A stretch of DNA of 64,000 nt, taken from contig VJWM01000108.1 of assembly GCA_010909165.1 (NCBI GenBank), positions 124,001 through 188,000 on the forward strand. The letters are read 5' to 3'. The notes beneath the pieces were generated by a model. It searched no databases, was not told the DNA's origin, and saw nothing but the letters and a program-made list of their open reading frames with translations. Position 1 is the stretch's first letter, and every line of letters starts with the position of its first letter. The stretch is from Anthoceros angustus (Eukaryota > Plantae > Anthocerotophyta). Position numbers and translations under genes: made by a program. Positions 27,501 to 64,000 of the stretch are shown here, piece after piece.

Positions 27501-27547
27501 AGAACTCCTAACGCCTCCACAGACTGAGTGACATGCCCTGATGACAT
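24530..27547 (-). CDS. PLS-class PPR protein with E1/E2 domains, ending just after a PGxSWW box (organellar RNA-editing-type factor; no DYW deaminase domain)
   Basis: Intronless 1005-aa ORF; ~104-aa P-L-S triplets (LVDMYAKCGSLEDA, VVTWNAMIAGY, PD.VTFVCLLQAC); HYTCMVDLLGRAG; AAAYVLMSNIY; KQPGHSWWTD...VHTFLVEF*. Confidence 0.95.
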   Translation of the reverse strand: MSSGHVTQSVEALGVLVETECCVPISLLQTVLKKCSVKKDLALSRRVHAFTVRNGYQSDTFLCNHILRMYTSHGRLQEAMDVFTAVGKPDAFMWSSIISAHSRHGQDTQAIQLYHQMRRSSANPDGHVFVAALQACAKGGDLQSGQQVHADVLASGVEPGYFVSSSLVDMYAKCGSLEDARTVFEGLREKNVVTWNAMIAGYSQQGMGREALCLYSAMQEGGMVAPDAVTFVCLLLACATVGTPALEQGKELHAEIRGQEHEADVFIGNSLVNMYAKCGSLVDARAVFEGLGQKNVVTWNAMITGYCREGMGREAITLYSRMQEEGMAAPDYVTFVCLLQACASVGTTALEKGRQLHAHIREEGHEGNMIVCSSLVDMYAKCGSLEDAQRVFDRLARKDVVTWNAIIAGYCQQGMGQKALRLYSSMQDDGTVAPNSLTFVCLLQACGSLGTSALEKGAQVHAQITDRGHETDVFVGKNLVNMYAKCGSLEDARRVFDKIRQKDVVTWNAMIAGYSHQGLGQEALFLYSTMQEEGMATPDPKTFVYLLQACSSSGNSSLEKGKQLHAQIREQGHLGDEFVASSLIAMYAKCGSLEDARRVFDGLGHKNVVTWNAMIAGYSQQGMGQEALCLYSNMQEEGMAAPDSVTFLCLLQACASVGTPALQQGKELHARIREQGLQGDVVVASSLVTMYAKCGSLETAHRVFDKLGRKDVVAWNSMIAGYSQQGTVQEALRLYSAMQEAGTVAPDAVTFVCLLQACADVAALHLGRQLHAQIQEQRLQADVLVANSLINMYGKSGSMIDAQQVFEALPERDRVTWNALIAGYTRQGDSAVVFDLVRRMKEDGIRADGITFLHVLTVCSHAGLVDQGRQYFEAMSNHYSITPTVEHYTCMVDLLGRAGRLDESLALVGNIPVPPTAAVWHTLLGACRKWNNVEVAHHAFHEAVKLDKQDAAAYVLMSNIYTEAHMWEKAQEMQARRIGIKAWKQPGHSWWTDMDGMVHTFLVEF

Positions 27548-28990
27548 AGCTTGCTCACACTTTCAGCCGTTACGACCCTTTCGGACCCTGCAGGCCTGCC
27601 ACCATGACCGGGCAGGGATGATCGTGACTCTCTCTGGCAGGTCTTGACGAGCTGGGGTCTTTGAAAATTTGCTACTCCTCGCACCTTCATTGCTCAGCAA
27701 CTTCCACAATGACCTTCGTTTCCCAAGTGAGCTGAGCGGGAGCTCTTCCAAGACCAACCGTCAACCTCCACACAGCCATGGCTTGCGGTGGCGCAAGCAC
27801 ATTACGGGCAACAAGTTACCAGCAACATATGCCCTCCCATGGCCATACTGATGCGATGCTGTAGTGGCTGGAGCACTCATGGTGTGCCTACAGGGGGGAA
27901 GCAATCGTTGCTGCAGGACAGCTGAAATCGTGACCACACCATGTGAGCAGAAGAAGGTCGATGGTTCCATGAAGGATCTGGTTCTGGGCCGTCACAGCCA
28001 TGCTCTCATCATCACAAGAAGGTGTGGGTTATGCCACGTTGTGCATGCAAGGCGTGCTTCCTCAACAGGATGTGGTGACATAGATGGCTCTGATAGCAGA
28101 ATACTTCCAGCAGGACCATGGATCAGGGATCCCTTCATCTTCACAGTGCTGTGCAGCAAGAAGGCATCGCTGCCCCTCACTCTGTAACATTTGTGGAATG
28201 CGAAATGCAATGATAGCAGGAAATCTCCAGCAGAGAATATTGGGCCACGAAACCCTTCGTCAAAAGGAAGGGAATGTCCGCGAAACCTCCCCAGGGTTGG
28301 CCCCCGGTGTGCGCTCATGACTGGGAAGAGTCCAAAGACTCCGTGTCAACCGAAGCGACACTAAACCCCCCCGGCCTCCCCGGCCTGGTTGCCAATATCA
28401 GACCACGGCGCAACAAGCCCTGAAATTGCTCACATACAGTTAGGGACCCATCCGTGGCACCTTTGAAGAGCGGGGCACACAAGCTAGCGACCTCCCAAGA
28501 GATCGAGTCGGGCAGGAGGAGATTGTGAATGGTAGCCAGATTTGATGTCAGCAGCCCACAGCATTCACCAACCTGTTCACATACAGGCTTTGCTCATTGA
28601 GCTAGTCAGCTGAGAGAGTAGTGAAAGGGCCAGCACGAAACCGTGCAATTTCAGGATCCAGGGCCCCCTTCAGCTCCATGCACAGCATTTTGATGTCCAG
28701 ACACAGGCTACTCGCCCACCAACAAGCCTCTTCCTTTGAGTGCCGAGGAGAACGGGATGAAAGACCTCGTGTCTGCCAAGAAGCCTCCAGCAATTTGGAA
28801 ACTCATACAGATGCAGCTCAGATGGTAGAGCCTTGCTCAGACGGTAAGAGTTCCAGGGATCGATGCCCTACAATTCGACTTTTGGCACAGTTGCGTGAAG
28901 ATTTATTTTTAAAAATAATTTGGCGATGCAGTTGAAAATACGACAAAATAGCGGAAATAACCGACTACGGGACCCTGACTACGAAAGCCC

Positions 28991-43995: not shown

Positions 43996-44410
43996 CTTGC
44001 ACGGCTGCTACCGTAGGCCCCGTCATTGAGGTTGCAAAATCACAGCGCCGCGTGACATTCTTTGCTCTCGAGCTGAAGCCTGGTGTCTTCTTCCAGCGCC
44101 AGATCATGCAGGACGGAGTTCATGTGCAAGCTCGGATTTGTGTGCACCTAGTCTACGCTTTGGTCAGCAAAATTTGATGTGTTTATTGGTAATTGCGAAT
44201 CTTGCAATTGCAGGATGGCGATTCTTCCTCGTCGAAGCTCCAATTTTGTTGCAAGTTGCCGTTTCTCGTGTTGTTAACAGTACGAATGCAACACAGGCAT
44301 GTCCTGCATCCTTGCAGCGGGATTGTCGTACCGATTTGGTGAGCTTGCATGTTTGAGAACAACTGCGAGGGACGGAAGTACTGTAGGGATTGCGAAATTG
44401 CACGATAGAG

Positions 44411-45469
44411 ATGGCGCGCCACGCAGCAGCGGGGTCGGCTCCGCTGCCGCCATGGCCGCGGAGTGACGAGCATCCGCCGCGCTCCGCCGTCTTGTGCCTG
44501 GTGCTGCTGCTGGGAATCGCGCTGCCGGTGGCGCTGCTGCACGCGCTCGCGCCGCGGGCGGAGGGAGCGGGACGGGTCGCCGAGGTGCCGGAGACGCTGG
44601 AAAAGGCGCTGGCGGCAGTGGCAGTGGACGGGACAGTGGTGGTGTGCACTGTGAGCGAGCCTTACGTGCCGTTTCTCGACAACTGGCTCATCAGCGTGGT
44701 GAAGCAAGGGCGGGGGCGGCACCACGCCGTGCTGGTGCTGGCGGAGGACATGGCGACGCGGGACCTGGTGGCCGCGCGCTGGCCGGGCCACGCCGTCCTG
44801 CTGTCGCCCTCACCCGCACTCGCCGCGTCCGCGGCGGAGAAGTTCGGTTCACAGGGCTTCTTCAACCTCACGTCCCGCAGGCCCCGCCACCTGCTGCGCA
44901 TTCTGGAGATGGGCTACTCGGTGCTGTACAACGATGTGGACATGGTGTGGGTCGGGGACCCTTTCCCCTTCTTCCGCGGGGAGCACGACGTGTGGTTTGC
45001 GGACGACATGGCGGCCGTGAAGCCGGCCGGGCACTCCTCCGGGTTGCCTCCGCCGGGGAAGAAGGGGCGGCCGTACATCTGCAGCTGCCTGCTCTTCATG
45101 CGGCCGACCCCGGGAGCGAAGCTGCTGCTGCGGGCGTGGATGCAGGAGATGCGGCAGAGGCCATGGTCCAGGCAGGAGAAGGTGAACGACCAGCCGGCTA
45201 TGAACTGGGCGCTCATGAACACGGCGGGAATGGTGGACGTGTATGTTCTGCCCCAGGCTGCGTTTCCCACCGGAGGGCTCTATTTCAGAAACCACACCTG
45301 GCGGAGAGAGCAGGAGGGGAAACAGGTGGTGCTGCATAATAACTACATTGTCGGCCTAGAGAAGAAGATCAAGAGGTTTCGACAGTTGGGGCTGTGGTAC
45401 CTGGATACACCTTCTGATGCGGCCTTGTCACCTCTCTACTCCGAGATGGTCGGCAGTACACTGACCTGA
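44411..45469 (+). CDS. GT77 nucleotide-diphospho-sugar transferase, RGXT/MGP4-like rhamnogalacturonan-II xylosyltransferase; intronless
   Basis: Type II TM anchor; KFGSQGFFNLTSRRPRHLL; YNDVDMVW (DxD); LPPPGKKGRPYICSC; LPQAAFPTGGLYF; HNNYIVG. Confidence 0.9.
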   Translation: MARHAAAGSAPLPPWPRSDEHPPRSAVLCLVLLLGIALPVALLHALAPRAEGAGRVAEVPETLEKALAAVAVDGTVVVCTVSEPYVPFLDNWLISVVKQGRGRHHAVLVLAEDMATRDLVAARWPGHAVLLSPSPALAASAAEKFGSQGFFNLTSRRPRHLLRILEMGYSVLYNDVDMVWVGDPFPFFRGEHDVWFADDMAAVKPAGHSSGLPPPGKKGRPYICSCLLFMRPTPGAKLLLRAWMQEMRQRPWSRQEKVNDQPAMNWALMNTAGMVDVYVLPQAAFPTGGLYFRNHTWRREQEGKQVVLHNNYIVGLEKKIKRFRQLGLWYLDTPSDAALSPLYSEMVGSTLT

Positions 45470-46200: not shown

Positions 46201-49200
46201 TCATTGGAACCTTTCAAAATTCGGAAGCGAAAGTGAAAGACCGTTGGTGTTAGGCCGAATCTGCAGGTTAGACTCTATGGGTAGATTATTTTGCATATTG
46301 AAGGCACCTATCTGAGACCTTGACATATTGCCGTCGAACGGATTGTTTAACAGATTTTGCTGTTGGGCCGGCCGACGCCCTGCATGCACTGAGGCCTCCG
46401 CCTGATGATGGGACATCAACTCAGGTACTTCAGGCTCCGGAGTCCCCAAGGAGGGCTGTTGCTGCACTCACAAAGCCCGCGAAGATCAGCATTTCTCGCA
46501 TCGCTTGAACGGCAACACCTTCGATGAAAGAGAAACCAAGGCGAATGACTAGCCCCGGCAAGGGTTATGACAGACTCAAAGTACAATACACACTGTCCCC
46601 TCGCTCAATCAACCACAACATGCAAAAAGGCAGGCAGGTGTAGTCATCGAACCTGGCTTGAATACATGGGAGTTGCCAAGTTTGCTGTTTGATTGGCATG
46701 ATAAGGTTGTGGAGGCCAAGTAGAAAGCCCGAAGCCTGCTGTCATATCTTGAGAGCGTCCACCAGAAACTCCCCCACTGTAGCCATGCTGTACCATGCCC
46801 ATCTCCACCTTCTCTTTCTTTATTTCCTCAATGTACGCAGAATCCATGGTCTCCATGTTCAAGCCGTGCAAGCCACCTCTCAAAGCCGTAGGCACCATAG
46901 ATCGCATGCTATCTGACTGGCAACTATGGGAAGGCATCTGCTCACTTCCCTCTCCTTGCGAGCCCGCCATGTAGTAGGTACTCGGTTGACATTCAGAGCT
47001 GCCACCAGAATCCCTAATCATGTTTCAGAAAGTGGGGGCAGTGAATTAAAAACCAACCTAACGAACGAACGATAGGGCCATCGAAGAAAAGCAAAACTTC
47101 TTTTCCTCAGCTTGTACTCCGTTATGTCGCACCTTATTTGAGAAGCATTCTGCTGCATGACAGAGGATGATGAATGTTCCATGAAATCCTGGAGCTGACT
47201 GCTCTGTATCCCTGACATCCATCCCCACGGCAGGTACCCTGGGATTCCTGGTGGTGCTCCACCCACACGGCTTTGCAAGTTTGCATAGATCTGCAGATGT
47301 GAATAGGAGATCGGTGCATGAGCTTTGTGCACCACACCTAGGGCACACCTTTTCAGATGCACAGCACACTTGTCGATGCAAATGATGCATGCACACAGGT
47401 AAGCACCTGCTGTAAGCTTGAGAGGGGATTGTTTGCGTCGGTCTCCTGCTGCATTTGGACAGGTTTCAACGTTCAGCACATGGAGGAACTAGACAGTGAC
47501 ACAAGGAGGCTAGTCCTCAAGAGCCTGTATCCGTGCACAGTAGGTACATCGAGGTATACCTGGTTCCTAAGCCCCACAAGGTTGTTGTTCAGCACTTCAA
47601 TCTGCGCCAGAGTACCAGCTGGTTGTTAGACAGCATGACATCCCGAGTGCACACCTTGAAGAAACGCTTACACACTACGACGGCCTTGGGCAACACGGTT
47701 CGCAGAGAGAAAGCCCCTGCAATCCATCACCGTTGACGTACCTTTCGCGCCCGAACTTTCCGCAGAGCTTCCGTTATGTCTTCCTCCAGACGAAGAAGCT
47801 GAGCTAGCGAGGTGCACTGACGGAGTTCGTTTTCATCAAATAACCTACAGCCCCAGGGCAGACATGCCTCAGAACACTTGGCTGAAGTGCAACATGCCCT
47901 TGGAGCAGCGGTCGCTCCCAATCCCGAATCCGAGCCAGCCGAGCCCCGCTCACTCTAAGGCAGTTCCGTTGCTAGCAACGGCTCTAGAGACCACTAACCT
48001 CGCCTTTTGCTGAGCTATCTCTTTCTCCTGTGTCAGCCTTTTGATCTCATCTAGCAGCTGCAAAGCCAGACGACACAAGCAAAGCATAAGCGCTTCACTC
48101 TCAACCATAACACGGAGCGGAGCGAGTGAAAAACGATGACTCCAAACCTACAGCAGCAGAGCCTCTACTTACCCCTGCTGTGTCAAGGTTTCTGCTTGGC
48201 ACAAACAGAAGCAGCCGACATGCAACACAAGACAACGCCCTGTCAGACCATTATCGCTTCGTTCCGCAGCGGCAGCCACAGAAACCAAGGAGAACGGTGC
48301 CAAACCTGGACTGTGGACCGCCGTCGTTCCGCTCAGCATTCAGCTTCTTCACGGCCCGGTTCAGGTACTGCCGGAGGACAGGACAAGGCAGGCACGCCAG
48401 TCAGTGCGATGCGCTGGCAAGGAGGGCTGTTGCTGCACTCACAAAAGCCCGCGAAGATCAGCATTTCTCGCATCGCTTGAACGGCAACACCTTCGATGAA
48501 AGAGAAACCAAGGCGAATGACTAGCCCCGGCAAGGGTTATGACAGACTCAAAGTACAATACACACTGTCCCTCGCTCAATCAACCACAACATGCAAAAGG
48601 CAGGCAGGTGTAGTCATCGAACCTGGCTTGAATACATGGGAGTTGCCAAGTTTGCTGTTTGATTGGCATGATAAGGTTGTGGAGGCCAAGTAGAAAGCCC
48701 GAAGCCTGCTGTCATATCTTGAGAGCGTCCACCAGAAACTCCCCACTGTAGCCATGCTGTACCATGCCCATCTCCACCTTCTCTTTCTTTATTTCCTCAA
48801 TGTACGCAGAATCCATGGTCTCCATGTTCAAGCCGTGCAAGCCACCTCTCAAAGCCGTAGGCACCATAGATCGCATGCTATCTGACTGGCAACTATGGGA
48901 AGGCATCTGCTCACTTCCCTCTCCTTGCGAGCCCGCCATGTAGTAGGTACTCGGTTGACATTCAGAGCTGCCACCAGAATCCTAATCATGTTTCAGAAAG
49001 TGGGGGCAGTGAATTAAAAACCAACCTAACGAACGAACGATAGGGCCATCGAAGAAAAGCAAAACTTCTTTTCCTCAGCTTGTACTCCGTTATGTCGCAC
49101 CTTATTTGAGAAGCATTCTGCTGCATGACAGAGGATGATGAATGTTCCATGAAATCCTGGAGCTGACTGCTCTGTGTATCCCTGACATCCATCCCCCACG

Positions 49201-50983
49201 GCAGGTACCCTGGGATTCCTGGTGGTGCTCCACCCACACGGCTTTGCAAGTTTGCATAGATCTGCAGATGTGAATAGGAGATCGGTGCATGAGCTTTGTG
49301 CACCACACCTAGGGCACACCTTTTCAGATGCACAGCACACTTGTCGATGCAAATGATGCATGCACACAGGTAAGCACCTGCTGTAAGCTTGAGAGGGATT
49401 GTTTGCGTCGGTCTCCTGCTGCATTTGGACAGGTTTCAACGTTCAGCACATGGAGGAACTAGACAGTGACACAAGGAGGCTAGTCCTCAAGAGCCTGTAT
49501 CCGTGCACAGTAGGTACATCGAGGTATACCTGGTTCCTAAGCCCCACAAGGTTGTTGTTCAGCACTTCAATCTGCGCCAGAGTACCAGCTGGTTGTTAGA
49601 CAGCATGACATCCCGAGTGCACACCTTGAAGAAACGCTTACACACTACGACGGCCTTGGGCAACACGGTTCGCAGAGAAAGCCCCTGCAATCCATCACCG
49701 TTGACGTACCTTTCGCGCCCGAACTTTCCGCAGAGCTTCCGTTATGTCTTCCTCCAGACGAAGAAGCTGAGCTAGCGAGGTGCACTGACGGAGTTCGTTT
49801 TCATCAAATAACCTACAGCCCCAGGGCAGACATGCCTCAGAACACTTGGCTGAAGTGCAACATGCCCTTGGAGCAGCGGTCGCTCCCAATCCCGAATCCG
49901 AGCCAGCCGAGCCCCGCTCACTCTAAGGCAGTTCCGTTGCTAGCAACGGCTCTAGAGACCACTAACCTCGCCTTTTGCTGAGCTATCTCTTTCTCCTGTG
50001 TCAGCCTTTTGATCTCATCTAGCAGCTGCAAGCCAGACGACACAAGCATAAGCGCTTCACTCTCAACCATAACACGGAGCGGAGCGAGTGAAAACGATGA
50101 CTCCAAACCTACAGCAGCAGAGCCTCTACTTACCCCTGCTGTGTCAAGGTTTCTGCTTGGCACAAACAGAAGCAGCCGACATGCAACACAAGACAACGCC
50201 CTGTCAGACCATTATCGCTTCGTTCCGCAGCGGCAGCCACAGAAACCAAGGAGAACGGTGCCAAACCTGGACTGTGGACCGCCGTCGTTCCGCTCAGCAT
50301 TCAGCTTCTTCACGGCCCGGTTCAGGTACTGCCGGAGGACAGGACAAGGCAGGGCACGCCAGTCAGTGCGATGCGCTGGCAAGGGGAGGGCCACACAACA
50401 AAAGCCAAAGCTCCGGCCGGTTCTTCGGCCAGCAAAAACGAGAACGCTCCCTACCTCAATATTCTCAATCTTCCTGCATTCACCAGCCGGCCCGTCCCGT
50501 GCAACATGCACACACAAGCGAGATCAGACTTGCGCGCAACCGCAACGAAACGCGCAGCAAAGCACACAGATCCCTTCCTACCGGAGCCTTGCTCAGCTCA
50601 CACATCCAAACAGCGCGGAACGGCAAACCAAGGACGGACCTCTTGGACCGCTCGTGCTCCGGGCAATCGGCATACCGGTTTATGATATCCTCAATCCTGC
50701 ACCTCACAAAAAGCAGCAGCGCAGCGTCCGTGAGACGAATTGGCAGCGGGAGACGGCGGATCGAAAGGAAAAAAAGCTCGGTATCGCAGATCCTCCCGCA
50801 CCGGACGTTGGAAAATTGCGTGAGCTTCCCGGAGGGAGAGAAGACAATGAGGCCGATGTCGATGCCGCACAGAACCGAAAGCTCGTGCGCCTTCTTGATG
50901 AGCCCGTTGCGGCGCTTGGAGTAGGTCACCTGGCGGTTGGTCGGGTTCTCGATCTTCTTGATCTCCAGCTTTACGCGGCCCAT
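46201..50983 (-). CDS. MIKC*-type MADS-box transcription factor, multi-exon; contains an internal tandem duplication
   Basis: [39 protein letters not shown]; RIEDIINRY; several short I-region exons; K-like [16 protein letters not shown]. Confidence 0.9.
46447..50385. repeat. ~1.97-kb tandem duplication inside the MADS gene
   Basis: GAGGGCTGTTGCTGCACTCAC at 46451 and 48422; copies differ mainly by small indels; CAAGG(GG)AGGGC microhomology. Confidence 0.92.
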
Positions 50984-51094
50984 GGCGCCCGGCCGCGGCA
51001 CCAATGCTTGCTCTTGCGAGCTCTTGCAAACGAGCAAGCTCTTGCTTACAAGAGCGGCGGCAGCGGCAAGCAGCTCTCGCAGCAGAGGCAGGCG

Positions 51095-51128
51095 GCAGCG
51101 GCAGCAGCAGCAGCAGCAGCAGCAGCAG
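51095..51128. repeat. (GCA)n microsatellite in the MADS 5' leader
   Basis: GCAGCAGCAGCAGCAGCAGCAGCAG, about 110 bp upstream of the ATG. Confidence 0.85.
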
Positions 51129-52899
51129 AACGCGCGTTCTGGGCAAGGACGGACGGCCGGGGAGGCGGGGCTGGCCTGGCACGCTGGCAGACGGGTGGAA
51201 AGAACGATGGAGTGTGAGCGAGGCGGGCCGGCCTGGGGGCCTGGTCGCAAACCCTACGGAGCGATTGCAGGAGGGCGTTGACTTACGCCCGGCGCCTGAT
51301 ACGACCGCCGGGTGGGGGCGGGGTCCGCGACCGACGGGCGCCGGGGAGGCGAGGATCCAGCCCCTCGGATGCCTGGGATCGCCTCGCGCGACCCTCATCC
51401 CTCCCGTACCACGACAATCACGGCGCCACGGTTTCGCCGCGTTTCGCCACCGGCAAATCTCTTGGGAGCCACGTCCTCCAGAAGATTCCGCTGCGCCACC
51501 CGCATGCATTGCAGCCATTACGGCGTGCCGTGCGCTATCCCCAAATCCTGTGCCCTCTGCGTTTCCGCTTTGCTTTGCTTACCGTGCCGTAATACTCTCC
51601 GATTACGCGAATGAATCGCGTTCGCGTCTCGTGAGTCGAGGAGTCGAGATCTGGACGCGAGCCGATCTTTCCATCGTTCTTGCCGGCACAATCCTGGGGC
51701 AGCCCCTGGAGGTTGTGAGACCTTCTTTGCAGCCGAAGCTGCAGGACGCGCAGCCTGTCCGTGACACAGTCTTGTTTTGCATCTTCGGTCAGCCCGGACT
51801 CCCTCGTGGAACTTCAGCGCAGCAACTTGCTTGACCCCCGATGAGGTTTGCATCGAACCTAGTGTTTCTACCCTCATACATACTCTTGGCTGTCTCGTTG
51901 TGGTGTACTTTTCTCGTTTTTTTCTGCCTTTGCTTGCCAGATCCGTGCATTAGCATTAGGCAGGGATGGAAGTACGTTTGTCATTTTGGACCAGTTTCAA
52001 GAGCTCCGAGAAAGGGATTGACGGTAGCAAGCTTGCTCTTGTTGATGGCCATTTTCTGAATTGAAGGACAAGATCTGCCTCTGCAACTGCTTTACAGGCC
52101 GCATGTTTCGTTTATTAGGTTCTGCTGCTGCAAAGTATCGGAGCAGCGGGTTTCTATGCATCCAATAGTCGAGCATATATAGATTCCTTTGGAAAGGGAA
52201 AAACATGCTCAAGGATTGTTTAGGTTTTGTGCTTCCGTCTCTGGCCTGCAAGTGCTGATTCTGACATGGCAGGTGAAAGAGGGTTTGGCCCGTCTGAAGT
52301 CTCTCACTGTCCTTGTCCTTGTGGATGCAGTTTTTAATGCACATATAGATATGTCCGTGGTACATGTTTGTTTGAGCCCGTACTCTCATGTTGCGGCCAC
52401 TGGCCACATGCTCTTAGGCGACGGCGTCCGGACTCCAGCACGCGAGCATCATTTCGCTGAGTCGGAAAGGCAGCGGATGTCCACGAATAGATGTAGAGCA
52501 TTTACGCAACTGCTTCACCGACCAAGCAACGCCATCGCCCTTTCTAGGCAAGTGGCAGGGCACCATTGGCTTCTCCCGGGATCAAATCTATTAATCCGTC
52601 TTCTACCTGGTTCTTTCCAGCAGCGTCCGCGGAACGTGTGACGATTTTGGAGAATGCTTGAGACGCCTGGGTTCCCCGGTAGAAGTGTGAAGAAACCAGA
52701 ATACCGCGATGTTTACACTTGAGAATCTGGAGGCATGGTGCCGGGTTTCAATTTCCAAATGTATGGAGAGAGCGGCAGCAGGCGATGTGACAGTCGCGTA
52801 AAGCGTTCAATGCGGGTAACCATCAGGAGGGAGACAGAGAGAGTTCCACTTTTCTGAGGGAAACAACTCCAAGCTCCACATGAACACCTCGGAAACACG

Positions 52900-53040
52900 A
52901 GCTCCACACAAACATCACAGAGGGACACACAAGGGGATGTCGTTACAAAGCTCCACACGAACATCACAAAGGGACACACAAGGGATGTCGTTACAAAGCT
53001 CCACACAAACATCACAGAGGGACACACAAGAGGATGTTGT
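52900..53040. repeat. ~48-bp tandem repeat x3
   Basis: AGCTCCACACAAACATCACAGAGGGACACACAAGGG(G)ATGTCGTTACAA. Confidence 0.9.
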
Positions 53041-53149
53041 AACGACAGGAGGACTTTAGTTCACAACATATGCTTACCACAGTCTCCTGCTTCCTACTGG
53101 AATCGATTACTACGTGCCCTTAGGCCTTCTCTAGTTGTTTTTGTAGGCC

Positions 53150-53490
53150 ATGTTGCTGCCGTAGTCCATGCAGAACAAGTGCCTCTGGGTCGAGACCTTG
53201 CTGTGCATATCCCGCAACCGGGGGCATTCGATGTCACCACATCCCTTGTGGGCAAGCTGTCAAAAAAACCCCGCGGGGCCTCTTCCAGTTCTCCACCTTT
53301 TGCATACATGGACATGTCCACAGGGGGAGTTGCCAGGAAACAAGTCAGGAGGAACGCCACTGTGCAGCATTATCAGCCTTTTCTGCCACATCCCAAGTCT
53401 GCAGCAAAGTGCCCAAGCTTGAAGGGTTGCTACGGAGACGCCAGCATCCGCCATCACACCTGGCCATTGCATTTCATGGCCCAGTTGTTT
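53150..53490 (-). pseudogene. PPR relic
   Basis: VDMSMYAKGGELEEAPRGFFDSLPTRDVVTSNA, frameshifted. Confidence 0.7.
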
Positions 53491-53647
53491 CTCATATCTA
53501 GATAGCCCAAAGTGATTTTAATTGTCTGTATCGTAAAATAACAATGTAAATAGGAGATTATACTGCAGCATATTCATATATAACAATTTCATGAACTTGA
53601 AAGTGACTTTTTGTTATCTTAACAAGGAAACAACGATGGCAAGAAGC

Positions 53648-53985
53648 CCATCCAGCAAGGGACAGCCCAGAAGGACCCGAGGGTCAAGATGAATAGGAGC
53701 GACTAAGCATCCTACCAATAACCAAGGAGGAACCCGAGGGTCAAGATAAATAGGAGCGACTAAGCATCCTACCAATAACCAAGGAGGAACCCGAGGGTCA
53801 AGATAAATAGGAGCGACTAAGCATCCTAGCGACAACCAAGGAGGACCCCGAGGGTCAAGATGAAAAGGAGCGACTAAGCACTCTACCAAAAGCTACCTCC
53901 TACTCCCAAAACAAGCACATCCAGCAAGGGACAACCAAGGAGGACCCCGAGGGTCAAGATGAAAAGGAACGACTAAGCACCCTAC
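53648..53985. repeat. ~57-bp tandem repeat, about 5 copies
   Basis: AACCAAGGAGGA(A/C)CCCGAGGGTCAAGAT.AA.AGGAGCGACTAAGCA. Confidence 0.9.
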
Positions 53986-54439
53986 CTAAAGCGCTGGCCC
54001 TTTCCTAATTCACAGCTTATTTCAGATAGCGGGTCTCAATTGCCCTTCGAAGGGCTCTCTTGGAGGCAATCCTTCACAAGGCGGTGATAGCAGATGACGC
54101 TTCTTCCTCTTCCTCCGTGATTTGCAAGCCTTTTGTTCTTCCTGCATATGATGCCATGCGTGCGGGTGTGGCATCATATGTAGTAACTTCTCAACACTTG
54201 GTATTATTATTTTTCCTCTTCTACTATGCGGTTCTTCTACCAGAGACAGATTCTCGTTATGGGGCTCACGTAAGTACACAAATGAGAAGTAGAAAATAAT
54301 GCTCTACGATTAACATGACACGGGTGGATGGATTTTCATAATGGGACTCACATTATGAGATAAGACTATTGAAAGTAAATGTGATGATTAATCTAATGTA
54401 AAGTGGTTAGATCGATGTCCATCCTTTTTTTACTAACTG

Positions 54440-55656
54440 AGAGGCCAGTACAAGGCTGAGAGAGCCCAAAGGATGAAGCGAGAGGCCAGTGCAGGGGCTG
54501 AGAGAGCCCAAAGGATGAAGCAAGAGGCCATTGCAGGGGCTGAGAGAGCCTAACTACTTAAGAAAGCCGTCGGGGAAGAAAGCTCCTATGAGAGTAGGCT
54601 AGTGACCCCAAATTGCAATGGCATGGATGCATGCCAGCGAGCTAGATCGCCTGCTGAGCACTCGAAGACCCTTGGGCCACTGATGTCCTCAGAGTATCCA
54701 TAATCTTCTTTTCAAACCCCTGGAGCCGAGAGAGGAGGACCGAAGATGGAGGCAACGTATGGGTGAGGCAAAGTGTGGGTGAGGTAACCAGGGCGCCGAA
54801 CAAAACAGGAGGAAAGAATACCGAAGGCCACATGAGCATCTCCAAGAAAAGGGAGGTCCTCGATGTGGGATAGGTCCTCCGCAAGAACCTGGTCAAGGAA
54901 GTTGTCGATGAAGTCAGGGGAGCCGAAGGGGAACCCCAAAATCTGAAGACCCAAGGCTGGAGCAATTTCCCTAGCAAGGAACTGCAAAGTGGGGAGGATC
55001 CCTTACGGGGACCAGACACGGCATTGGAGAGCTTGACATTTAAGCCCACCAAAGAGAGCTTGGCCTTGAAGCCCACCAAAGAGAGCTCATGGGAGAAGAG
55101 CTCAAAGGCCTCCTTGACCTTATCTTGAGGCCCAAAGATGTGAGAGTCGTCTGCAAGCGAAGGCCAAGGATGTGAGAGTCGTCTGCAAGCGACGGAAAGT
55201 GACCTTATCTCAAGGCCCAAGGATGTGAGAGTCATTTGCAAGTGACGGAAAGTGACCTTATCTTAAGGCCCAAGGATGTGAGAGTCGTCTGCAAGTGACG
55301 GAAAGTGACCTTATCTCGAGGCCCAAGGATGTGAGAGTCATCTGCAAGCAACGAAAAGTGACCCTATCTCGAGGCCCAAGGATGTGAGAGTCGTCTGCAA
55401 GCGGCGGAAAGTGACCTTCTCTCGAGGCCCAAGGATGTGACAGTCGTCTGCAAGCGACGGAAAGTGACCTTATCTCGAGGCCCGAGGATGTAAGAGTCGT
55501 CTACAAGCGACGGAAAGTGCCCTTATCTCGAGGCCCAAGGATGTGAGAGTCGTCTGCAAACGATGGAAAGTGACCTTATCTCGAGGCCCAAGAATGTGAG
55601 AGTCGTCTACAAGCGACGGAAAGTGACCTTATCTCGAGGCCCAAAGATGTGAGAGT
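54440..55656 (-). mobile_element. CRE-like non-LTR retrotransposon RT fragment (downstream part)
   Basis: SLADDSHIFGPQDKVKEAF...VGLNVKLS...GLQILGFPFGSPDFI...AHVAFGILSSC; continues past the LTR insertion at 63750-64000. Confidence 0.75.
55117..55656. repeat. 53-bp minisatellite (about 10 copies, left arm)
   Basis: GGCCCAAGGATGTGAGAGTCGTCTGCAAGCGACGGAAAGTGACCTTATCTCGA. Confidence 0.93.
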
Positions 55657-55822
55657 TGCCATGCCGTGTGATACTAATCTCTGCACTTGGGATTAGTGTT
55701 TGATTAGCATTAATTAATCTAATTACTTATCTTCAAGTAAGTAATTAGTGTTCATTAATCTAAGGTGCTTATGTTAATTAAGCATTGATTAGTGTTAATT
55801 AAACATGGTTAGCAATAGCTAA

Positions 55823-58630
55823 GTGGATAAGCTCAAGTAATATGCTTTGGCATATTCCTTGCATATTATAGTGTATTCTTAGGATATTTCTGGCATATGC
55901 TGATGCCAATAGGATATCTTAGGAATATGCCGATGCCAGGGTCTAGTATATATAGACCCTTCCATTGAGGACAAGCTCAGATCATAGCTTGTCCTCTAGA
56001 TATGCAATGCAAGAGCGTTGTGAGGAGGCCAAAGCTATGACTCCGAGAGCGATGTGTGAGGAATTTGCGTGTTGTTCTCGTGGGGAGAGTGTGTTTGTGC
56101 CACGACGTGCGAGCTACTCCCTCCTGTTGTTACAAGCTATGATCTCGCTTGTGTACACTAGATAGGCGTGCTAGGCGATGCTAGGCGGTGCTAGGCGAGG
56201 CTAGGCTAGGCGATGCTAGGCGTGCTAGGCGAGGCGAGGCTAGGCGATGCTAGTGTGCAGGCGAGGCTAGGCGAGGCAAGGCCAAGGAGAGGCAAGGCGA
56301 GGCGAGGCAAGGCCAAGGAGGCGAGGCTAGGCGAGGCAAGAAGCCAAGGCCAAGGAGGAGGCGGAAGCCCAAGTCCAAGGCCAGAGGAGGCGAAGAAGCC
56401 CAAGTCCAAGGCCAAGGAGAGGAGGAAGAAGCCCAAGTCCAAGGCCAAGGAGAGGAGGCGAAGCCCAAGGCCAAGGAGAGGAGGCAAGAAGCCAAGTCCA
56501 AGGCCAAGGAGAGGAGGCGAAGAAGCCCAAGTCCAAGGCCAAGGAGAGGAGAGAAGAAGCCCAAGTCCAAGGCCAAGGAGGAGGCGAAGAAGCCCAAGTC
56601 CAAGGCCAAGGAGAGGAGGCAAGCCCAAGGCCAAGGAGGAGGCAAGAAGCCCATACCAAGGAGAGGAATGAGGCTCCAAGGGGCTGGCCTTTTAAGGCCA
56701 ACCAACCAAGGAGAAACAAGAGTATTTTACTCTTGGGCCCGGATTCCAAGGGATAAGGGAAGTGGATAAGCTCAAGTAATATGCTTTGGCATATTCCTTG
56801 CATATTATAGTGTATTCTTAGGATATTTCCTGGACATATCGATGCCAATAGGATATCTTAGGAATATGCCATGCCAGGGTCTAGTATATATAGACCTTCC
56901 ATTGAGGACAAGCTCAAATCATAGCTTGTCCTCTAGATGCAATGCAAGGCGTTGTGAGGAGGCCAAAGCTATGACTCAGAGCAATGTGTGAGGAATTTGC
57001 GTGTTGTTCTCGTGGGGAGAGTGTGTTTGTGCCACGACGTGCGAGCTACTCCTCCTGTTGTTACAAGCTATGATCTCGCTTGTGTACACTAGATAGGCGT
57101 GCTAGGCGATGCTAGTGTGATGCTAGGCGAGGCTAGGCTAGGCGATGCTAGGCGTGCTAGGCGAGGCTAGGCGATGCTAGTGTGCAGGCGAGGCTAGGCG
57201 AGGCAAGGCCAAGGAGAGGCCAAGGCGAGGCGAGGCAAGGCCAGGAGGCGAGGCTAGGCGAGGCAAGAAGCCAAGGCCAAGGAGGAGGCGGCCCAAGTCC
57301 AAGGCCAGAGGAGGCGAAGAAGCCCAAGTCCAAGGCCAAGGAGAGGAGGAAGAAGCCCAAGTCCAAGGCCAAGGAGAGGAGGCGAAGCCCAAGGCCAAGG
57401 AGAGGAGGCAAGAAGCAAGTCCAAGGCCAAGGAGAGGAGGCGAAGAAGCCCAAGTCCAAGGCCAAGGAGAGGAGAGAAGAAGCCCAAGTCCAAGGCCAAG
57501 GAGGAGGCGAAGAAGCCCAAGTCCAAGGCCAAGGAGAGGAGGCAAGCCCAAGGCCAAGGAGGCAAGAAGCCCATACCAAGGAGAGGAATGAGGCTCCAAG
57601 GGGCTGGCCTTTTAAGGCCAACCAACCAAGGAGAAACAAGAGTATTTTACTCTTGGGCCCGGATTCCAAGGGATAAGGGATAAGGGATAAGCTCAAGTAA
57701 TATGCTTTGGCATATTCCTTGCATATTATAGTGTATTCTTAGGATATCTTAGGAATATGCCGATGCCAATAGGATATCTTAGGAATATGCGCCAGTATAT
57801 ATAGACCTTCCATTGAGGACAAGCTCAAATCATAGCTTGTCCTCTAGATGCAATGCAAGGCGTTGTGAGGAGGCCAAAGCTATGACTCAGAGCAATGTGT
57901 GAGGAATTTGCGTGTTGTTCTCGTGGGGAGAGTGTGTTTGTGCCACGACGTGCGAGCTACTCCCTCCTGTTGTTACAAGCTATGATCTCGTGTGTACACT
58001 AGATAGGCCGTGCTAGGCGATGCTAGTGTGATGCTAGGCGTGCTAGGCGATGCTAGGCGTGCTAGGCGTGCTAGGCGAGGCTAGGCGATGCTAGTGTGCC
58101 CAAGGCTTGAGGCTAGGGAGAGGCCAAGGCCAAGGAGAGCCCAAGTCCAAGGCTTGAGGCCTAGGAGAGGCAAGGCCAAGAAGAGGCCCAAGTCCAAGGC
58201 TGAGCAAGCCCAAGGAGGAGGAGGCGAAGCCCAAGTCCAAGGCCGAGAGGAGGCGAAGCCCAGTCCAAGGCCAAGGAGGCAAGAAGCCCGAGTCCAAGGC
58301 GAGAGAGGCGAAGAAGCCCAAGTCCAAGGCCAAGGAGAGGAGGAGAAGAAGCCCAAGTCCAAGGCCAAGGAGAGGAGGCGAAGAAGCCCAAGTCCAAGGC
58401 CAAGGAGAGAAGAAGCCCAAGTCCAAGGCCAAGGAGAGGAGGAGAAGCCCAAGTCCAAGGCCAGGAGAGGAGAAGAAGCCCAAGTCCAAGGCCAAGGAGA
58501 GGAGGCGAAGAAGCCCATACCAAGGAGAGGAATGAGGCCTCCAAGGGGTTGGCCTTTTAAGGCCAACCAACCAAGGGAGAAACAAGAGTATTTTACTCTT
58601 GGGCCCGGATTCCAAGGGATAAGGGAAGAG
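55823..58630. repeat. ~930-bp unit x3 (LTR segment plus CTAGGCG and CCAAGG low-complexity tracts)
   Basis: GGATAAGCTCAAGTAATATGC recurs near 55825, 56764 and 57685. Confidence 0.88.
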
Positions 58631-58677
58631 TGGATAGGCATGGGTATGTCATCAGTCCATTTGATTTCACTTTCTGT

Positions 58678-58742
58678 CCAAAACTCCTAGCACCCCATCC
58701 AGGTACTGATCCACCCACGGGTGCTTAACTGGAGTTCTTATG
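58678..58742 (-). other. 5S rRNA-derived segment (A-box/IE/C-box-like)
   Basis: Reverse complement TAAGAACTCCAGTTAAGCACCCGTGGGTGGATCAGTACCTGGATGGGGTGCTAGGAG compared with plant 5S CAGAACTCCGCAGTTAAGCGTGCTTGGGCGAGAGTAGTACTAGGATGGGTGACC (from memory). Confidence 0.7.
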
Positions 58743-59148
58743 TCTTTGCTATCCAACTCACCCAGCTCACATTTTTGATCATAGCCTGCAGAGTATTTGT
58801 ATGCAATTTTAACATGCATAGATACTTAGAGGTTTCACTAATCACGATCTAAGATAGCGGGTGTGTTAACCTTGATTAAGGGTTTGATCTAGCCACTAAC
58901 CGCCTGGAGTGCATGCCCGACACACTCGATCCGGACGGAGCTACCAACCAGCAAGTCCATCGAGCGAATTCAAGTCCCGACCAAGAGGAGAAGTGCGAAC
59001 ACCTCGATTTTGGTACCGAAGGGCGGAGGAACCCAGACACAATCAACAATCTTTGAAGGATCTGTGAGTGGCAACACACAAGACACGTTAGTCTTTGCCG
59101 GACAACTCGGAAGCGACAGAGGAGGACTTGTCTCTTGGAGTCGCCAAG

Positions 59149-60290
59149 ATGGGAGGAGACAAGGATCGAATGGAGTTGTTCACAGGACGAGCGGCACCTT
59201 GCCACCGGAGGACTTCATCGAGAAGTACGGTGTGCGGAGATGGAATTGAAGACCGGATACACGAAGCGATACGGCTTCATCCAAATGCCAAGTACTTGGG
59301 GATGAAGCATTGGCGTGCTATCGCGAGCACAAGGCGAGGTTGTTGAGCGCATTGGAGGACCAGTGAGTAGCAGTTCAAGCTCAAGGAACCAGGCAGACAG
59401 CAGTGGCACCGAGTGGGCACGATCCCATCAAGAGATGTTTGACATCTTCCTACCGGAGTTTCCTGCAAGCACGGATGAGAAGATCTCCGATGACACACTT
59501 CAAGATGAAGTCAGCGAGACTCGAAGATGGCTTATCAAGAATCGACCGGTTGGTACGTGACACCAAGATCATGAGTGACCGATGGCCGCAGAGAAGTACT
59601 TGCAGGCATTGCCATATACGCGCATGAAGGTGCAACAAGCGGTGCACAAGACGAAGGGCAACACTACACCCTCAAGGAAGTGTACGAGATGGTCGACAAG
59701 ATAGGGCCCGACACTTTCTCTCGTCTTTGCAAGTGATTACTCCAAAGACAAGTAGGAGTGGTGGACGACATGACCGACGCGGAGGTCGAGTGGAGGAGCT
59801 CGGCGAGACAAGCCACCCCACAGCCCAAGTGACGAGCCCTGCGTGAGGTGCCGAGGACGGACCATTCCCTCATGAGTGCGAGCATGCATTCGGAGGAGTC
59901 AAGGGTGAGGAGCCATGCCCTAGGTGGGAGGTGGGCACAATGAAGCGGCATGTTGGGAGAAGCATCCGAATTGCGGCCTACGGGTTATCGAGCAGCAACC
60001 CGGCCAATGCATCTGCGTCAACCTCATCCACAAAATCAGAAGAGCAAAGGCGCGTGGAGGAGGCGAAGTCCCGTGGACAAAAGAAACGGAAGCATCAAAG
60101 AAGACGATGGACAGCTACGTGGCACGCCTCGCAAAGCTGGAGAAGTTGGTGCGGAAGGCGAAGATCAAGGAGAGCAGCAGTTCATCATCAGAGGACGAAG
60201 AAGATGAGCACAAGCTTGGATACATGGCGATCGTGACCGGATCCAAGGGCAGGGAAGAAACCTCCGCAGCCTACGAGAGAAGATAGCAGG
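59149..60290 (+). pseudogene. Gag-like coding region with a CCHC knuckle (frameshifted)
   Basis: MGGDKDRMELFTGR...; C..(C)...GHNEAACWEKHP near 59915-59970. Confidence 0.6.
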
Positions 60291-60698
60291 AAGAAACCTC
60301 CGCAGCCTACGAGAAGATAGCTCGAGGAAGAAGAGGATGTCTTGACACCGCAGCGGAAGACACGGAAGGAAGCTTGGATCCTCTTCCCGAACCTATGCCA
60401 AGATGCCAAAGTCGTTTGAGCCATTGCCAGAGCAACTGTGGGAGCAACATCAAAGTCCAGTGGGCGATGGAGAAACCCATGCAGATTGTCGACGGAGACG
60501 ATGGCACAAAAGCTTCGGAGATGCCATGTTTCACCTACAAGACATGGGGTTGAGCGTGAAGGAAGTCGGGGTTTGACTCGGCGGATGTTGACAACCCTTG
60601 AAGACGAAGCAAGTGTCCAAGATTTGCCACAACAGTGGCAATGATGTCATTGCGACCTCGAGCCAAGCATCTCGTGGAGAAGCGGAATCTTTGCACGA

Positions 60699-61100
60699 GT
60701 GGCTTTGGTCAACAATCGGGAGAGGCACATTGAAATCAATGGATTCGCACCAAGGAGGGTGTTGATTGACACCGGAGCACAGCCGGTGATCGTTGGAAGA
60801 AGAGTGAAGGAAGCGTTGGGTCTCCACCAAGAAAGGTTGAAGGAAACCAAGTGGAAGATCCAGACCGCAGCTGGGACCACGGAGCATGTGTTGGGGGTGA
60901 CAAGGTACAAGCTGAAGGTTTCATTCAAACCAAGAACAGCAGACTTCACCTTTGTCGAGGTACACTGCTTGGTCACTGATGCAGACACATTTGATGTCTT
61001 GCTGGGAGCGGACGCTTTGTACAAACCTGGAGTCATGGTGGATTTGTGGACGGAGATGCCTACTATCGACCAGCCGGAGAAGCTGGAGCAAAACCGATGA
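60699..61100 (+). pseudogene. Retropepsin aspartic protease
   Basis: RRVLIDTGAQPVIVG ... FDVLLGAD. Confidence 0.85.
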
Positions 61101-61485
61101 ACGGATTGCCCGCATCCCTCCGCACTGGCAAGGATCATGAGAACCTCATTGCCAACAGGCTCACCCAGTGTTTGGCGCCAGAGTGAAGGACACGCCATAC
61201 GTGCTTGAACCTCTTGGCGTGTGTCTAACAACCGCAATGGACCTGATGGAGGATTTCGACGAGGAGGAGGAAGACAAGCTAGGGTTGCAACCACCCTCGG
61301 AGGAGGTTCTTCAAGTCAGCCGGACGGAGCTGGTGACTGCAGCAATGAGCCGTGCAAAAGCTGTGGAGGATGGTGCAAGAGGACCAGTGTCCTATGAGCC
61401 GGAGAACTGCTGTAAGTTCTTGCCTAGGGTTGAGCTGTTTGTGACCTAAACACCGGTCATCACATGGCGACCTCGGGAAGGCGGC

Positions 61486-62449
61486 ATAGTGCTCGTGGAA
61501 CTCTTTGGAGGCATCGATCGGCTTGGGCGGTGCTAAAGTGTGGCATCAAAGTGCGAAGATCGTGCATTGTGACCCGGATCCAAAAGCAAGGATTGTGTCA
61601 CGAGCGTAAGAGACTTGATGGGGGAGTACCCTAACCTCCTGACGTGGGAGTCAGTGAAGGGTTACCAGAAGGCGCTGCCGATGGATGTTCGCATGATAGG
61701 GTTGTCCCATTTGAGTTGTCTTGGGCAACCGGTGGACCTTGTCATCGCAGTTGGGAGTGTCAAGGACTATCCTCTGCGAGGCAAGGGTCAAGGTCGAAGG
61801 ATCCACGACGGCATTGTTCTATGACTGATGAGGATCTTGCGCTTGATCCGAAAGGGCAAGAAAGGCCTTGTGGATACATGTTGGAGAATGTGCCCATGCA
61901 TGAGCGTGAAGAAGCAAGTTCGGAGGACTTTGCCACGATCCGAGGAGTGTTGGGTCGGGAGCTTCTATTGGATGCGACTCAATTTGGTTCGAGGGCTCAT
62001 AGGTTGAGGTCCATGTGGACTAACCTTGCTCCCTTGGAACATTTGAAGTGTGCGAGGTCGTTCACCAAGCGACCTAATCATGTTGTCAAGGATGTGCTAG
62101 CATCGGAAGGCATGCCCAACAAGTCATCAAGGCGACAAGCCGCACTTCCTGTGAACACGCTGGACACCCCATGGCGGCTTGGCCAACCTTTGTGTCCAAG
62201 TCCAAGTCTTACGCCTTCAGGAACCATGGCCCTGGCGTTGTGGTGGACAGACATGGCGAGGCCTTGGGAGAGCCAACAGCCACAGAGAGGGAGTTGGCCA
62301 TGGGATTTGCTGCCGGAGCCACGAAGACACCGGGAGTGACCGAGAAGGAACGGTGTCGATTGCTTGGGCAAGCATTTGACATGAACATGATGACCTGGTT
62401 GTTTAGCGCTGGAGTCGCTACCAACTTCAAACCAAGAAGGCGGGGTTGA
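61486..62449 (+). pseudogene. C5 cytosine DNA methyltransferase domain (frameshifted) inside the retroelement
   Basis: Motifs in order: IVLVELFGGI (I), VDLVIA(G)WECQGLS (IV), MLENVP (VI), DATQFGSRAHRLRSMWTN (VIII), PTATERELAMGF (IX), RCRLLGQAFDM (X). Confidence 0.85.
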
Positions 62450-63749
62450 AGCAGCGGGTTCGGTGGGTGAAGGACATTCCAACACTCGCATCTCAACAGG
62501 AGAAGGCGAGTTTGGAGGGCAAGGAGAGTGAGCACATAGAGGAAGCGTGCAAGCCATCTGAGCCACAGCCACATGAGTGGTTAACAAGCACCGAGTTGAA
62601 GTGCAATCAATGGCGTCAGCTAAAAGAGTTGTCGGAGGCATCGCGACATGTGTTTGCTTTCACTCTTGTGGAGATGGGGAAGCACACCAAAGGGAAATTC
62701 CACATAGAACTAATCAAGGATGAACCAAGTGTTCGCAGGAGGCACAGCTCGAAGGCAAGAAAATGACGAGCAACCGGGGAGAGTAGTCCACATAGCAGGC
62801 CCATGAGGATGTCAAGACAAGCCTCCACTCATGGACAAGGTTCATAACCTCGACGACATTCCGAAGGAGATTGGTTTTGTGCACAATGCGCTACATGAGG
62901 TGCGTACGTGTGTAGTCCTACTAATGATAATGTTTTGACTTAGAGTCTCACATTATCGGGGGATTGGTTGCACCTATATATCTGCGTATTAGATTTGTTT
63001 GCTTGGTTGTTGGTCGAGTGCTTATATGAATTCAAGTGCTTACCTCGTGCGGCTGTCGCGTGTGATACTAATCTGCACTTGGGTTTAGTGTTTGATTAGC
63101 ATTAATTAATCTAATTACTTATCTTTAAGTAAGTAATTAGTGTTAATTAATCTAAGGTGCTTATGAATTCAAGTGCTTACCTCGTCGACGGTCATCTGTG
63201 ATACTAATCTGCACTTGGGTTTAGTGTTTGATTAGCATTAATTAATCTAATTACTTATCTTTAAGTAAGTAATTAGTGTTAATTAATCTAATGTGCTTAT
63301 GTTAATTAAGCATTGATTAGTGTTAATTAAACATGGTTAGTAATAGCTAAGTAGATAAGCTCAAGTAATATGCTTTGGCATATTCCTTGCATATTATAGT
63401 GTATTCTTAGGATATTTAGGATATCGATGCCAATAGGATATCTTAGGAATATGCCGATGCCAAGGGCTAGTATATATAGACCTTCCAATGAGGACAAGCT
63501 CAAATCATAGCTTGTCCTCTAGATATGCAATGCAAGGGTGTTCGAGGAGGCCAAAGCTATGACTCCGAGAGCAATGTGTGAGGAATTTGCGGGTTGTTCT
63601 CGTGGGGAGAGTGTGTTTGTGCCACGATGTGCGAGCTACTCCCTCCTATTGTTACAAGCTGCATATATATATCTGCGTATTAGATTTGTTTGGTTGGTTG
63701 TTGGTCGAGGAAGTGCTTATATGAATTCAAGTACTTACCTCGTGCGACA

Positions 63750-64000
63750 GAGTCGTCTGCAAGTGATAGAAAGTGACCTTATCTCTAGGCCGAAGGATGT
63801 GAGAATCGTCTACAAGTGACAGAAAGTGACCTTATCTCGAGGCCCAAGGATGTGAGAATCGTCTGCAAGCGATGAAAAGTGACCTTATCTCGAGGCCCAA
63901 GGATGTGAGAGTCGTCTGGAAGTGACCAAAAGACGTAGTCGCAAGCAGTGGAAGCTGGCCTGGATAGGGCCTTGTAGTGGGCGATACCAAATAGAGCGTC
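63750..64000 (-). mobile_element. Right arm of the 53-bp minisatellite plus upstream CRE-like RT coding sequence
   Basis: About 4 more 53-bp units; reverse complement of the window end reads DALFGIAHYKAL...FWSLPDDSHILGPRDK. Confidence 0.78.

Follow-up and report, generated by a model that had tools for sequence, protein, structure and literature searches.

Plant transposons are held in check mainly by cytosine methylation, and a transposon with its own de novo methyltransferase reverses the roles. The closest described system is KnitGypsy-Dnmt3 of the alga Klebsormidium nitens, a Gypsy element that carries a DNMT3 and has its repeats in the order A-coding-B-A-B (PMC5890265). In that paper (de Mendoza et al. 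2018), K. nitens is the sole charophyte case, the capture is treated as specific to the K. nitens lineage, and the species surveyed include no hornwort, no liverwort and no Chara (PMC5890265). The initial annotation of the present locus had cited the same paper for DNMT-bearing elements in charophytes; this holds for Klebsormidium, whereas Chara does not appear in the species table. According to the same paper, KnitGypsy-Dnmt3 gave no methylation in yeast, a result that its authors deem inconclusive, SymbioDIRS-Dnmt3 gave de novo CG methylation in yeast, and methylation of the element's own cDNA was proposed (PMC5890265). Of the later texts, PMC12344493 states only 'streptophytes', citing the 2018 paper, and a 2026 preprint cites 'streptophytes (Gypsy-DNMT3)'.

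We analysed a stretch of 64,000 nucleotides of the hornwort Anthoceros angustus (contig VJWM01000108.1), hereafter the window. It holds an element whose parts are listed in Table 1. We consider it fairly probable that this element is a frame-broken, internally deleted copy of a multi-copy Gypsy-type family, and that the conserved DNMT3-like domain of the family methylates the element's new DNA.

Table 1. The element, its parts and its target site in the window.
Feature	Positions	Strand	Basis or remark
Whole element, 8093 bp	55657..63749	+	TG start, CA end; layout A1-internal-B1-A2-B2
Left target: part of the 53-bp tandem array (9.3 copies), ending with GAGT (55653-55656)	55164..55656	.	4-bp target-site duplication, left side
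Terminal repeat A1 (about 480 bp), with an AT-rich hairpin close to its beginning	55657..56144	+	94% identity to A2
Leader: three tandem copies of a unit of about 925 bp (the 3' portion of A, with purine-rich simple repeats)	55821..58640	+	4 substitutions and 18 indel events between units 1 and 2
Gag, frameshifted; a zinc knuckle (GH..C..HP) has its end at about 59930-59965	59150..60250	+	Homologous-gag profile E 2.8e-4, top among 2429 ORFs; limits approximate
Retropepsin protease (DTGA)	60732..61064	+	Pfam PF13650 (Asp_protease_2) E 2.9e-11; family profile i-E 8e-32
DNMT3-like C5 cytosine methyltransferase domain	61483..62419	+	Motifs I, IV (Glu-Cys), VI, VIII, IX and X in canonical order
Linker and stretch leading into RT (62593-62754)	62420..62755	+	Cut where RT begins; profile E 8.9e-9 among three frames
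Filler of about 100 bp in place of RT, RNase H, integrase and most of the PHD finger	62756..62859	+	Intact relatives have about 890 codons here
Last 12 PHD finger residues (GDWFC..C) and pol stop	62860..62898	+	i-E 0.007 in the whole-window scan; E 9e-5 locally
Repeat B1, with a weak purine tract (62958-62963) before it	62969..63056	+	91% identity to B2
Repeat A2; the B|A junction has undergone a tandem duplication of 136 bp (63025-63301)	63057..63660	+	Repeat comparison
Repeat B2, ending GACA	63660..63749	+	Repeat comparison with B1
Right target: GAGT (63750-63753), then the 53-bp array resumes in phase (3.4 copies)	63750..63926	.	Right target-site duplication

The element splits the 53-bp array in phase and is flanked on both sides by GAGT, which gives a target duplication of 4 bp, or of 5 bp if the last A is assigned to the target. 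In other copies of the family the 5' end likewise starts with TGTCA, after dissimilar flanks. TG…CA ends with a target duplication of 4-6 bp are a canonical Ty3/Gypsy trait. Two full LTRs are absent, however, since the 5' end carries repeat A alone, and no tRNA primer-binding site was found behind A1 (no TGG follows it). Ordinary paired LTRs were therefore rejected in favour of split repeats, A-internal-B-A-B. The initial annotation had called the element an LTR retrotransposon with its own C5 methyltransferase in a land plant; the Gypsy-type family, the host and the methyltransferase stand, and the ends are split repeats instead of two ordinary LTRs. DIRS and Ngaro elements have a tyrosine recombinase and lack both a protease and a target duplication. 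In the window element the protease and the target duplication are present, no tyrosine recombinase was matched by Pfam in the 16 ORF fragments scanned, and the relatives carry an rve integrase; a DIRS element was thus also rejected.

Two folding features were observed in the repeats. The AT-rich hairpin with which repeat A nearly begins lies at 55703-55763 and 63093-63155; it was seen in the A2' copy, and it may contribute to priming or to recognition of the ends. For the region around the B|A junction, the folding z is -4.2 against 200 shuffles. No tRNA was found within the 64-kb window, and no Rfam match within 52000-64000.

The initial annotation had placed the methyltransferase between a retropepsin and a Gypsy pre-RT stretch, and both were recovered (Table 1), the retropepsin motif LIDTGAQP at about 60762. 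It had also stated that RT and integrase are lacking. Across the whole window, profiles for RT, RNase H and integrase gave nothing better than an i-E of 0.4. Because the pre-RT stub and the PHD tail adjoin the filler at a point where intact relatives have about 890 residues, the copy is recognizable as an internal deletion of gag-PR-DNMT-RT-RH-IN-PHD. It is a derivative and not an autonomous member of the family.

The methyltransferase domain is whole. In a frameshift-aware alignment, its full extent matched a 330-position profile, built from 164 homologous domains, at 622 half-bits, compared with 30-43 in 12 codon shuffles and 39 on the reverse strand. With an X placed at every break, the match reached an E of 2.8e-104. 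The motifs follow one another as the initial annotation had read them: ELFGG at 61498, WECQ at 61752, ENV at 61884, RAHRLR at 61992, WTN at 62016, ERELAMG at 62285 and LLGQAFD at 62360. One letter is excepted, the leading G of its 'GWECQGLS', which is out of frame in the window and falls on a break. The protein search used only the 110-residue core of the domain as query, and the match of the N- and C-terminal parts is therefore an independent check. Among 1.84 billion proteins, this core found 205 matches at E<=0.001, the best at 41-48% identity. The DNA_methylase profile PF00145, proposed earlier as a check, missed all five unjoined DNMT fragments (among 16 unjoined window fragments scanned), because the domain has diverged too far and has too many breaks; it was the frameshift-aware family profile that detected the domain. 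Among 32 scanned homologues, picked mostly by length, PF00145 was found in 18 at E<=1e-4 and missed 14 at that threshold, and RT, RNase H or integrase domains were present in 27.

The family profile ranked DNMT3A/B first (DNMT3A E 3.6e-23), DRM next (7e-13) and bacterial enzymes last (M.HhaI 1e-8). An AlphaFold model, made for the intact relative P0430 and not for the window's own copy, has a complete predicted fold (pLDDT 96) and a TM of 0.70 to DNMT3A/B structures. Judged by its sequence, the window domain is an unpermuted C5 methyltransferase domain that is related to DNMT3 and has the catalytic motifs, and it groups with the retrotransposon DNMT3s. Glu-Cys in place of Pro-Cys at motif IV, already remarked upon in the initial annotation, proved to be the commonest form in the family, with 117 of 199 full-length homologous domains having Glu-Cys and 69 Pro-Cys. 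Glu-Cys as a sign of decay was therefore rejected; it is the family norm. The catalytic Cys is conserved in 191 of the 199 domains, EN in 196 and HRxR in 193.

These counts bear on whether the domain is an enzyme at all. It could instead be a binding or targeting module that grips DNA or SAM and, together with the PHD finger, steers or shields the integration complex. The replacement of Pro-Cys in 117 of the 199 domains would suit such a module, as would the different places that the DNMT occupies in pol in sister lineages and the CpG content of the element (observed/expected 0.56-0.85), which is not depleted beyond that of host genes (0.43-0.93). The Klebsormidium domain, moreover, was without activity in yeast (PMC5890265). 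The catalytic Cys, Glu and Arg positions, however, are conserved in 96-98% of the 199 domains, Pro-Cys and Glu-Cys forms both occur within each architecture, and the fold predicted for the intact homologue is complete. We consider a mere binding role unlikely and favour an enzyme.

The copy is frameshifted, as had been claimed. The frameshift-aware alignment places at least nine breaks in the DNMT domain, all nine of them missing bases, with no stop codons, and aligned contigs point to a few further breaks. In the neighbouring 925-bp units, 18 indel events stand against 4 substitutions, and nearby host ORFs of 1010 and 582 codons are unbroken. This pattern fits long-read errors left in repeats, and some of the breaks may be of that kind. 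Among the 12 rows listed of 48, contigs of other copies have extra letters at four of the nine breaks and stop fitting at four others. Over their 464 aligned bases, repeats A1 and A2 show 18 substitutions, of which 11 are transitions, so the copy has also aged.

The element stretch was present in six sequencing runs from three organisms and three studies. Contigs of each of the runs X1, X2 and X3 cover 30 of 30 bins of 58700-63800, and 638-1046 contigs per run fall on 61440-62900 in all four of four runs. The sequence data thus describe a multi-copy family in which the DNMT domain is family-wide in three organisms. When the organisms were compared, 15 of 17 scorable differences in the DNMT were synonymous, against 29% expected (p 5e-7); 19 differences were listed and two, lying on breaks, were skipped. 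In the linker and pre-RT stretch, only 5 of 20 differences were synonymous (Fisher p 2e-4 vs DNMT). The count was made from those 40 of 122 places that had the best support, and what it compares are mixtures of contigs, not pairs of copies. The substitution pattern marks the DNMT domain as being under purifying selection within the family, and supports its retention by selection as part of the element's polyprotein.

The filler is covered by contigs of X1 only, at a depth of 171-325, and not by those of X3, X4 or X5; no joint that skips it was found in contigs of X3-X5. Upstream of 62861, a PHD motif goes on in contigs of X1 and X5, and from such loose ends it follows that longer, probably full-length, copies exist. 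Five contigs of X5 keep the frame from the DNMT into the linker. The frames of the window copy are broken, and four homologues are single PR-DNMT-RT-RH-IN ORFs.

The surroundings of the element are of host type. The gene for an RG-II xylosyltransferase (44387-45466) has land-plant relatives at 54-66% identity. In a tree of 50 rows it lies outside 44 vascular-plant rows (95/93) and a moss group (100/99); this tree is without a named hornwort or liverwort, and the long window branch allows for long-branch joining. A PPR gene at 24533-27562 on the minus strand is intronless, has 1010 codons, belongs to the PLS class with an E motif and ends as an E+ stub before any DYW domain. Its WW signature we take to be that of the WW subclass. 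Hornworts are enriched in PLS-type E+ PPR genes, and liverworts have few PLS genes. Taken by themselves, the xylosyltransferase and PPR genes make a hornwort the likely host. An exact look-up of three host ORFs found none of the three. At 46770-50350, a tandem duplication of about 1.97 kb, with blocks of 100% identity broken by indels, covers part of a MADS-box gene (SRF-TF 50483-51253) and is either recent or an assembly artefact. Degenerate PPR-like fragments were seen by eye on the minus strand at 52500-53900, where Pfam matched neither of two ORFs scanned; a tandem array with a 57-bp unit lies at 53675-53889. A broken frame at 54640-55130 (minus strand) runs into the 53-bp array that the element splits and has no Pfam match; by its motif it resembles the C-terminal part of RT in non-LTR retrotransposons of the CRE type.

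That the stretch is algal contamination, a chimera, or the result of a single capture of a host DNMT3 gene is extremely improbable. That the organism A of the runs is the host is itself presumed, which leaves such a reading some room. Yet the element interrupts the 53-bp array, which resumes in phase, and has made a target duplication there; host-type genes of similar GC are only about 3 kb away; and the domain is multi-copy in three organisms. A host DNMT3 origin of this one copy conflicts with an intronless domain that ends without DUF3444 and is 38-42% identical to retrotransposon DNMTs. Host gene capture was accordingly rejected, since the domain is family-wide and multi-copy, lacks DUF3444 and falls in the retrotransposon DNMT group. 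The purifying selection on the domain likewise speaks against a one-off host-gene insertion.

Comparison of 309 relative proteins revealed two recurring architectures. The commoner is RT-RH-DNMT-IN-PHD, complete in 102 of the 309, and its named cases are chlorophytes. The other, PR-DNMT-(RT-RH-IN), is the design of the window, with named cases in Klebsormidium (GAQ93235.1), Mesostigma and Closterium; the complete order PR-DNMT-RT-RH-IN(-PHD) is found in P0357, P0358, P0361, P0376 and the locus L033. One Cymbomonas protein has PR-DNMT-IN and groups with the chlorophyte type. The chlorophyte Gypsy group with RT-RH-DNMT-IN-PHD is large (P0001, P0022, P0338, P0344, P0345 and others), and the literature search found no paper describing it. 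The named homologues are all algal, with no land-plant protein among them.

A concatenated tree of the 47 rows in which protease and DNMT were both present, unrooted and without a DNMT3 outgroup, split 19 chlorophyte-type rows (SH-aLRT 97) from a remainder that includes the window. The window and the Klebsormidium elements thus fall together on the side away from the chlorophyte type, both in this tree and in a further one for which 82 of 169 domains were dropped at random from the chlorophyte-type set; the trees are unrooted and give no supported sister relation between the two. In the DNMT-only tree, also unrooted, the window adjoins the chlorophyte-type group (SH-aLRT 92). The protease tree places it among PR-DNMT elements with a support of 80. 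The closest relatives of the window sequence reach only 41-43% identity, and its branch is long.

Horizontal transfer from a green alga into the plant lineage, in place of descent, would explain why the named homologues are all algal and none from a land plant, and why the DNMT-only tree sets the window beside chlorophyte-type elements. We nevertheless hold it to be distinctly unlikely: there is no near donor (best identity 41-43%), the PR-DNMT-RT order is the one seen in streptophyte algae, and in the concatenated tree the 19 chlorophyte-type rows group without the window. Because no relative exceeds 43% identity, the sequence comparisons favour descent from a streptophyte ancestor over a recent transfer, with trees that do not resolve the matter.

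Environmental sequences were also searched. With a window fragment or P0357 as query, no relative was found among viral contigs, and with the alignment A2 as query only distant phage-type methyltransferases were found (28 loci, with no RT, integrase or protease match). A metagenome scan gave four loci, three with the family DNMT and one without a domain match; element ends were found in none. L002 (DNMT-RT) and L003 (DNMT-RT-integrase, on a 30-kb metagenome contig) are decayed, AT-rich copies of 33-38% GC. L033:3-6632 is an intact gag-PR-DNMT-RT-RH-IN-PHD with a single in-frame TAG between the DNMT linker and RT. The TAG is followed by CAA TCA, a CAR-YYA read-through context, and seven database proteins of the close group of L033 terminate at or near this position; from this sequence context, the L033 DNMT would be made at Gag level. 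L033 (CADCWO010000201.1) is a eukaryotic retrotransposon contig filed within a cyanobacterial GTDB genome bin, and P0327 is labelled as a bacterial MAG protein; both labels look like contamination.

The deleted form and the L033 stop raise another use of the enzyme, namely that its main targets lie in trans, in host chromatin or in sister elements, and that RT-less copies persist by supplying it. The window copy retains gag-PR-DNMT with the rest gone, and the depth of the filler in X1 indicates that its junction is real DNA there. The TAG CAA TCA stop of L033 after the DNMT would set the DNMT at Gag level, and A. agrestis is nearly without CHH methylation. Depth sums are not copy number, however, and internal deletions are ordinary; in addition, the selection signal compares organisms with possibly full-length copies, and so does not speak to selection after the deletion. 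We regard action mainly in trans as very unlikely.

In the reading that we prefer, the DNMT domain would be made within the Gag-Pol polyprotein, released by the protease and packaged in the particle. The packaged DNMT would methylate the cDNA de novo, at CG by analogy to DNMT3 and SymbioDIRS-Dnmt3, and a new insertion would arrive pre-marked and thereby evade recognition as foreign DNA or lower its cost to the host. For split-repeat elements, the internal junction has been proposed as a template for rebuilding the ends. The internal B|A junction may serve in this way during reverse transcription, and the integrase would then join the TG…CA ends to the target, giving the 4-bp duplication. The window copy would have needed the RT and integrase of a full-length partner, or it lost both after insertion. 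The family would descend from a streptophyte lineage common to Klebsormidium, Mesostigma and Closterium. By analogy with SymbioDIRS-Dnmt3, which methylates CG de novo in yeast, the domain most likely serves to methylate the cDNA of its own element inside the particle; the inactivity of the Klebsormidium domain in the same assay (PMC5890265) and the lack of extra CpG loss in the element speak against it.

A broader scenario is possible but doubtful. A single capture of DNMT3 by a Gypsy lineage would have preceded the chlorophyte/streptophyte split, the domain would have moved within pol, and it would still be an active Glu-Cys enzyme in land plants, where a hornwort RT-less, non-autonomous sub-family spreads while keeping the enzyme and makes transposons a source of de novo cytosine methylation. 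If such an active RT-less sub-family is real, transposons themselves supply de novo cytosine methylation in a land-plant genome.

The Gypsy-DNMT3 kind is already in print for one alga (PMC5890265). Measured against that account, the new points are the hornwort host, an RT-less form that retains the DNMT, Glu-Cys as the norm, and a wider spread in green plants than the single capture of the paper. The initial annotation was aware of no characterised embryophyte case, and our literature search found no land-plant DNMT retrotransposon either; most subscription papers, and the 2018 main and bioRxiv supplements, lay outside its scope, which may affect novelty. The split-repeat design and a selected domain in a land plant with a small genome suggest an old green-plant lineage and not a Klebsormidium quirk. 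Hornwort methylomes have already been mapped (PMC10952607), and the function of the domain is thus a testable question in hornworts.

Several known systems can be set beside the window element. With the host plant DNMT3s (PpDNMT3a/b), it shares a DNMT3-type catalytic domain with the canonical motif order; the host genes differ in having a C-terminal DUF3444 and in sitting outside gag-pol (PMC6453930). Behind the window DNMT, Pfam gave no DUF3444 match, and the stretch matches the pre-RT profile instead. The EpiLTRs of Euglena and Cymbomonas are likewise LTR-type retrotransposons with a C5 methyltransferase, but in them the DNMT, a sister of DNMT4, is accompanied by DAM and a chromodomain, and their authors hold them to be distinct from Gypsy-DNMT3 (bioRxiv 10.64898/2026.05.21.726589). 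SymbioDIRS-Dnmt3 and the split-repeat DIRS/Ngaro elements resemble the window in their A-B-A-B repeats and in a DNMT3 within pol, and SymbioDIRS-Dnmt3 is the only case with demonstrated de novo CG activity (PMC5890265). DIRS/Ngaro elements differ in using a tyrosine recombinase, whereas the window has a protease, TG…CA ends and a target duplication, and its relatives carry a DDE (rve) integrase. The chlorophyte Gypsy elements (Scenedesmus KAF8056149.1, Haematococcus, Monoraphidium, Chromochloris) have the same DNMT subfamily at about 40% identity, with GWECQ the commonest form, and a PHD finger at the end of pol. Their DNMT, in contrast, lies between RNase H and integrase, and they form a separate group in the concatenated tree. 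KnitGypsy-Dnmt3 is alike in its unpermuted, intronless DNMT3-related domain within a Gypsy polyprotein, in its A-coding-B-A-B repeats and in purifying selection on the domain; the PR-DNMT order is also that of K. nitens GAQ93235.1. The window differs from it in the land-plant host, in Glu-Cys at motif IV where Klebsormidium has Pro-Cys, in a copy without RT, RNase H and integrase, and in not being a supported sister of the Klebsormidium sequence. Finally, set against the single-lineage capture put forward in the 2018 paper, homologues are found here in Mesostigma, Closterium and chlorophytes as well.
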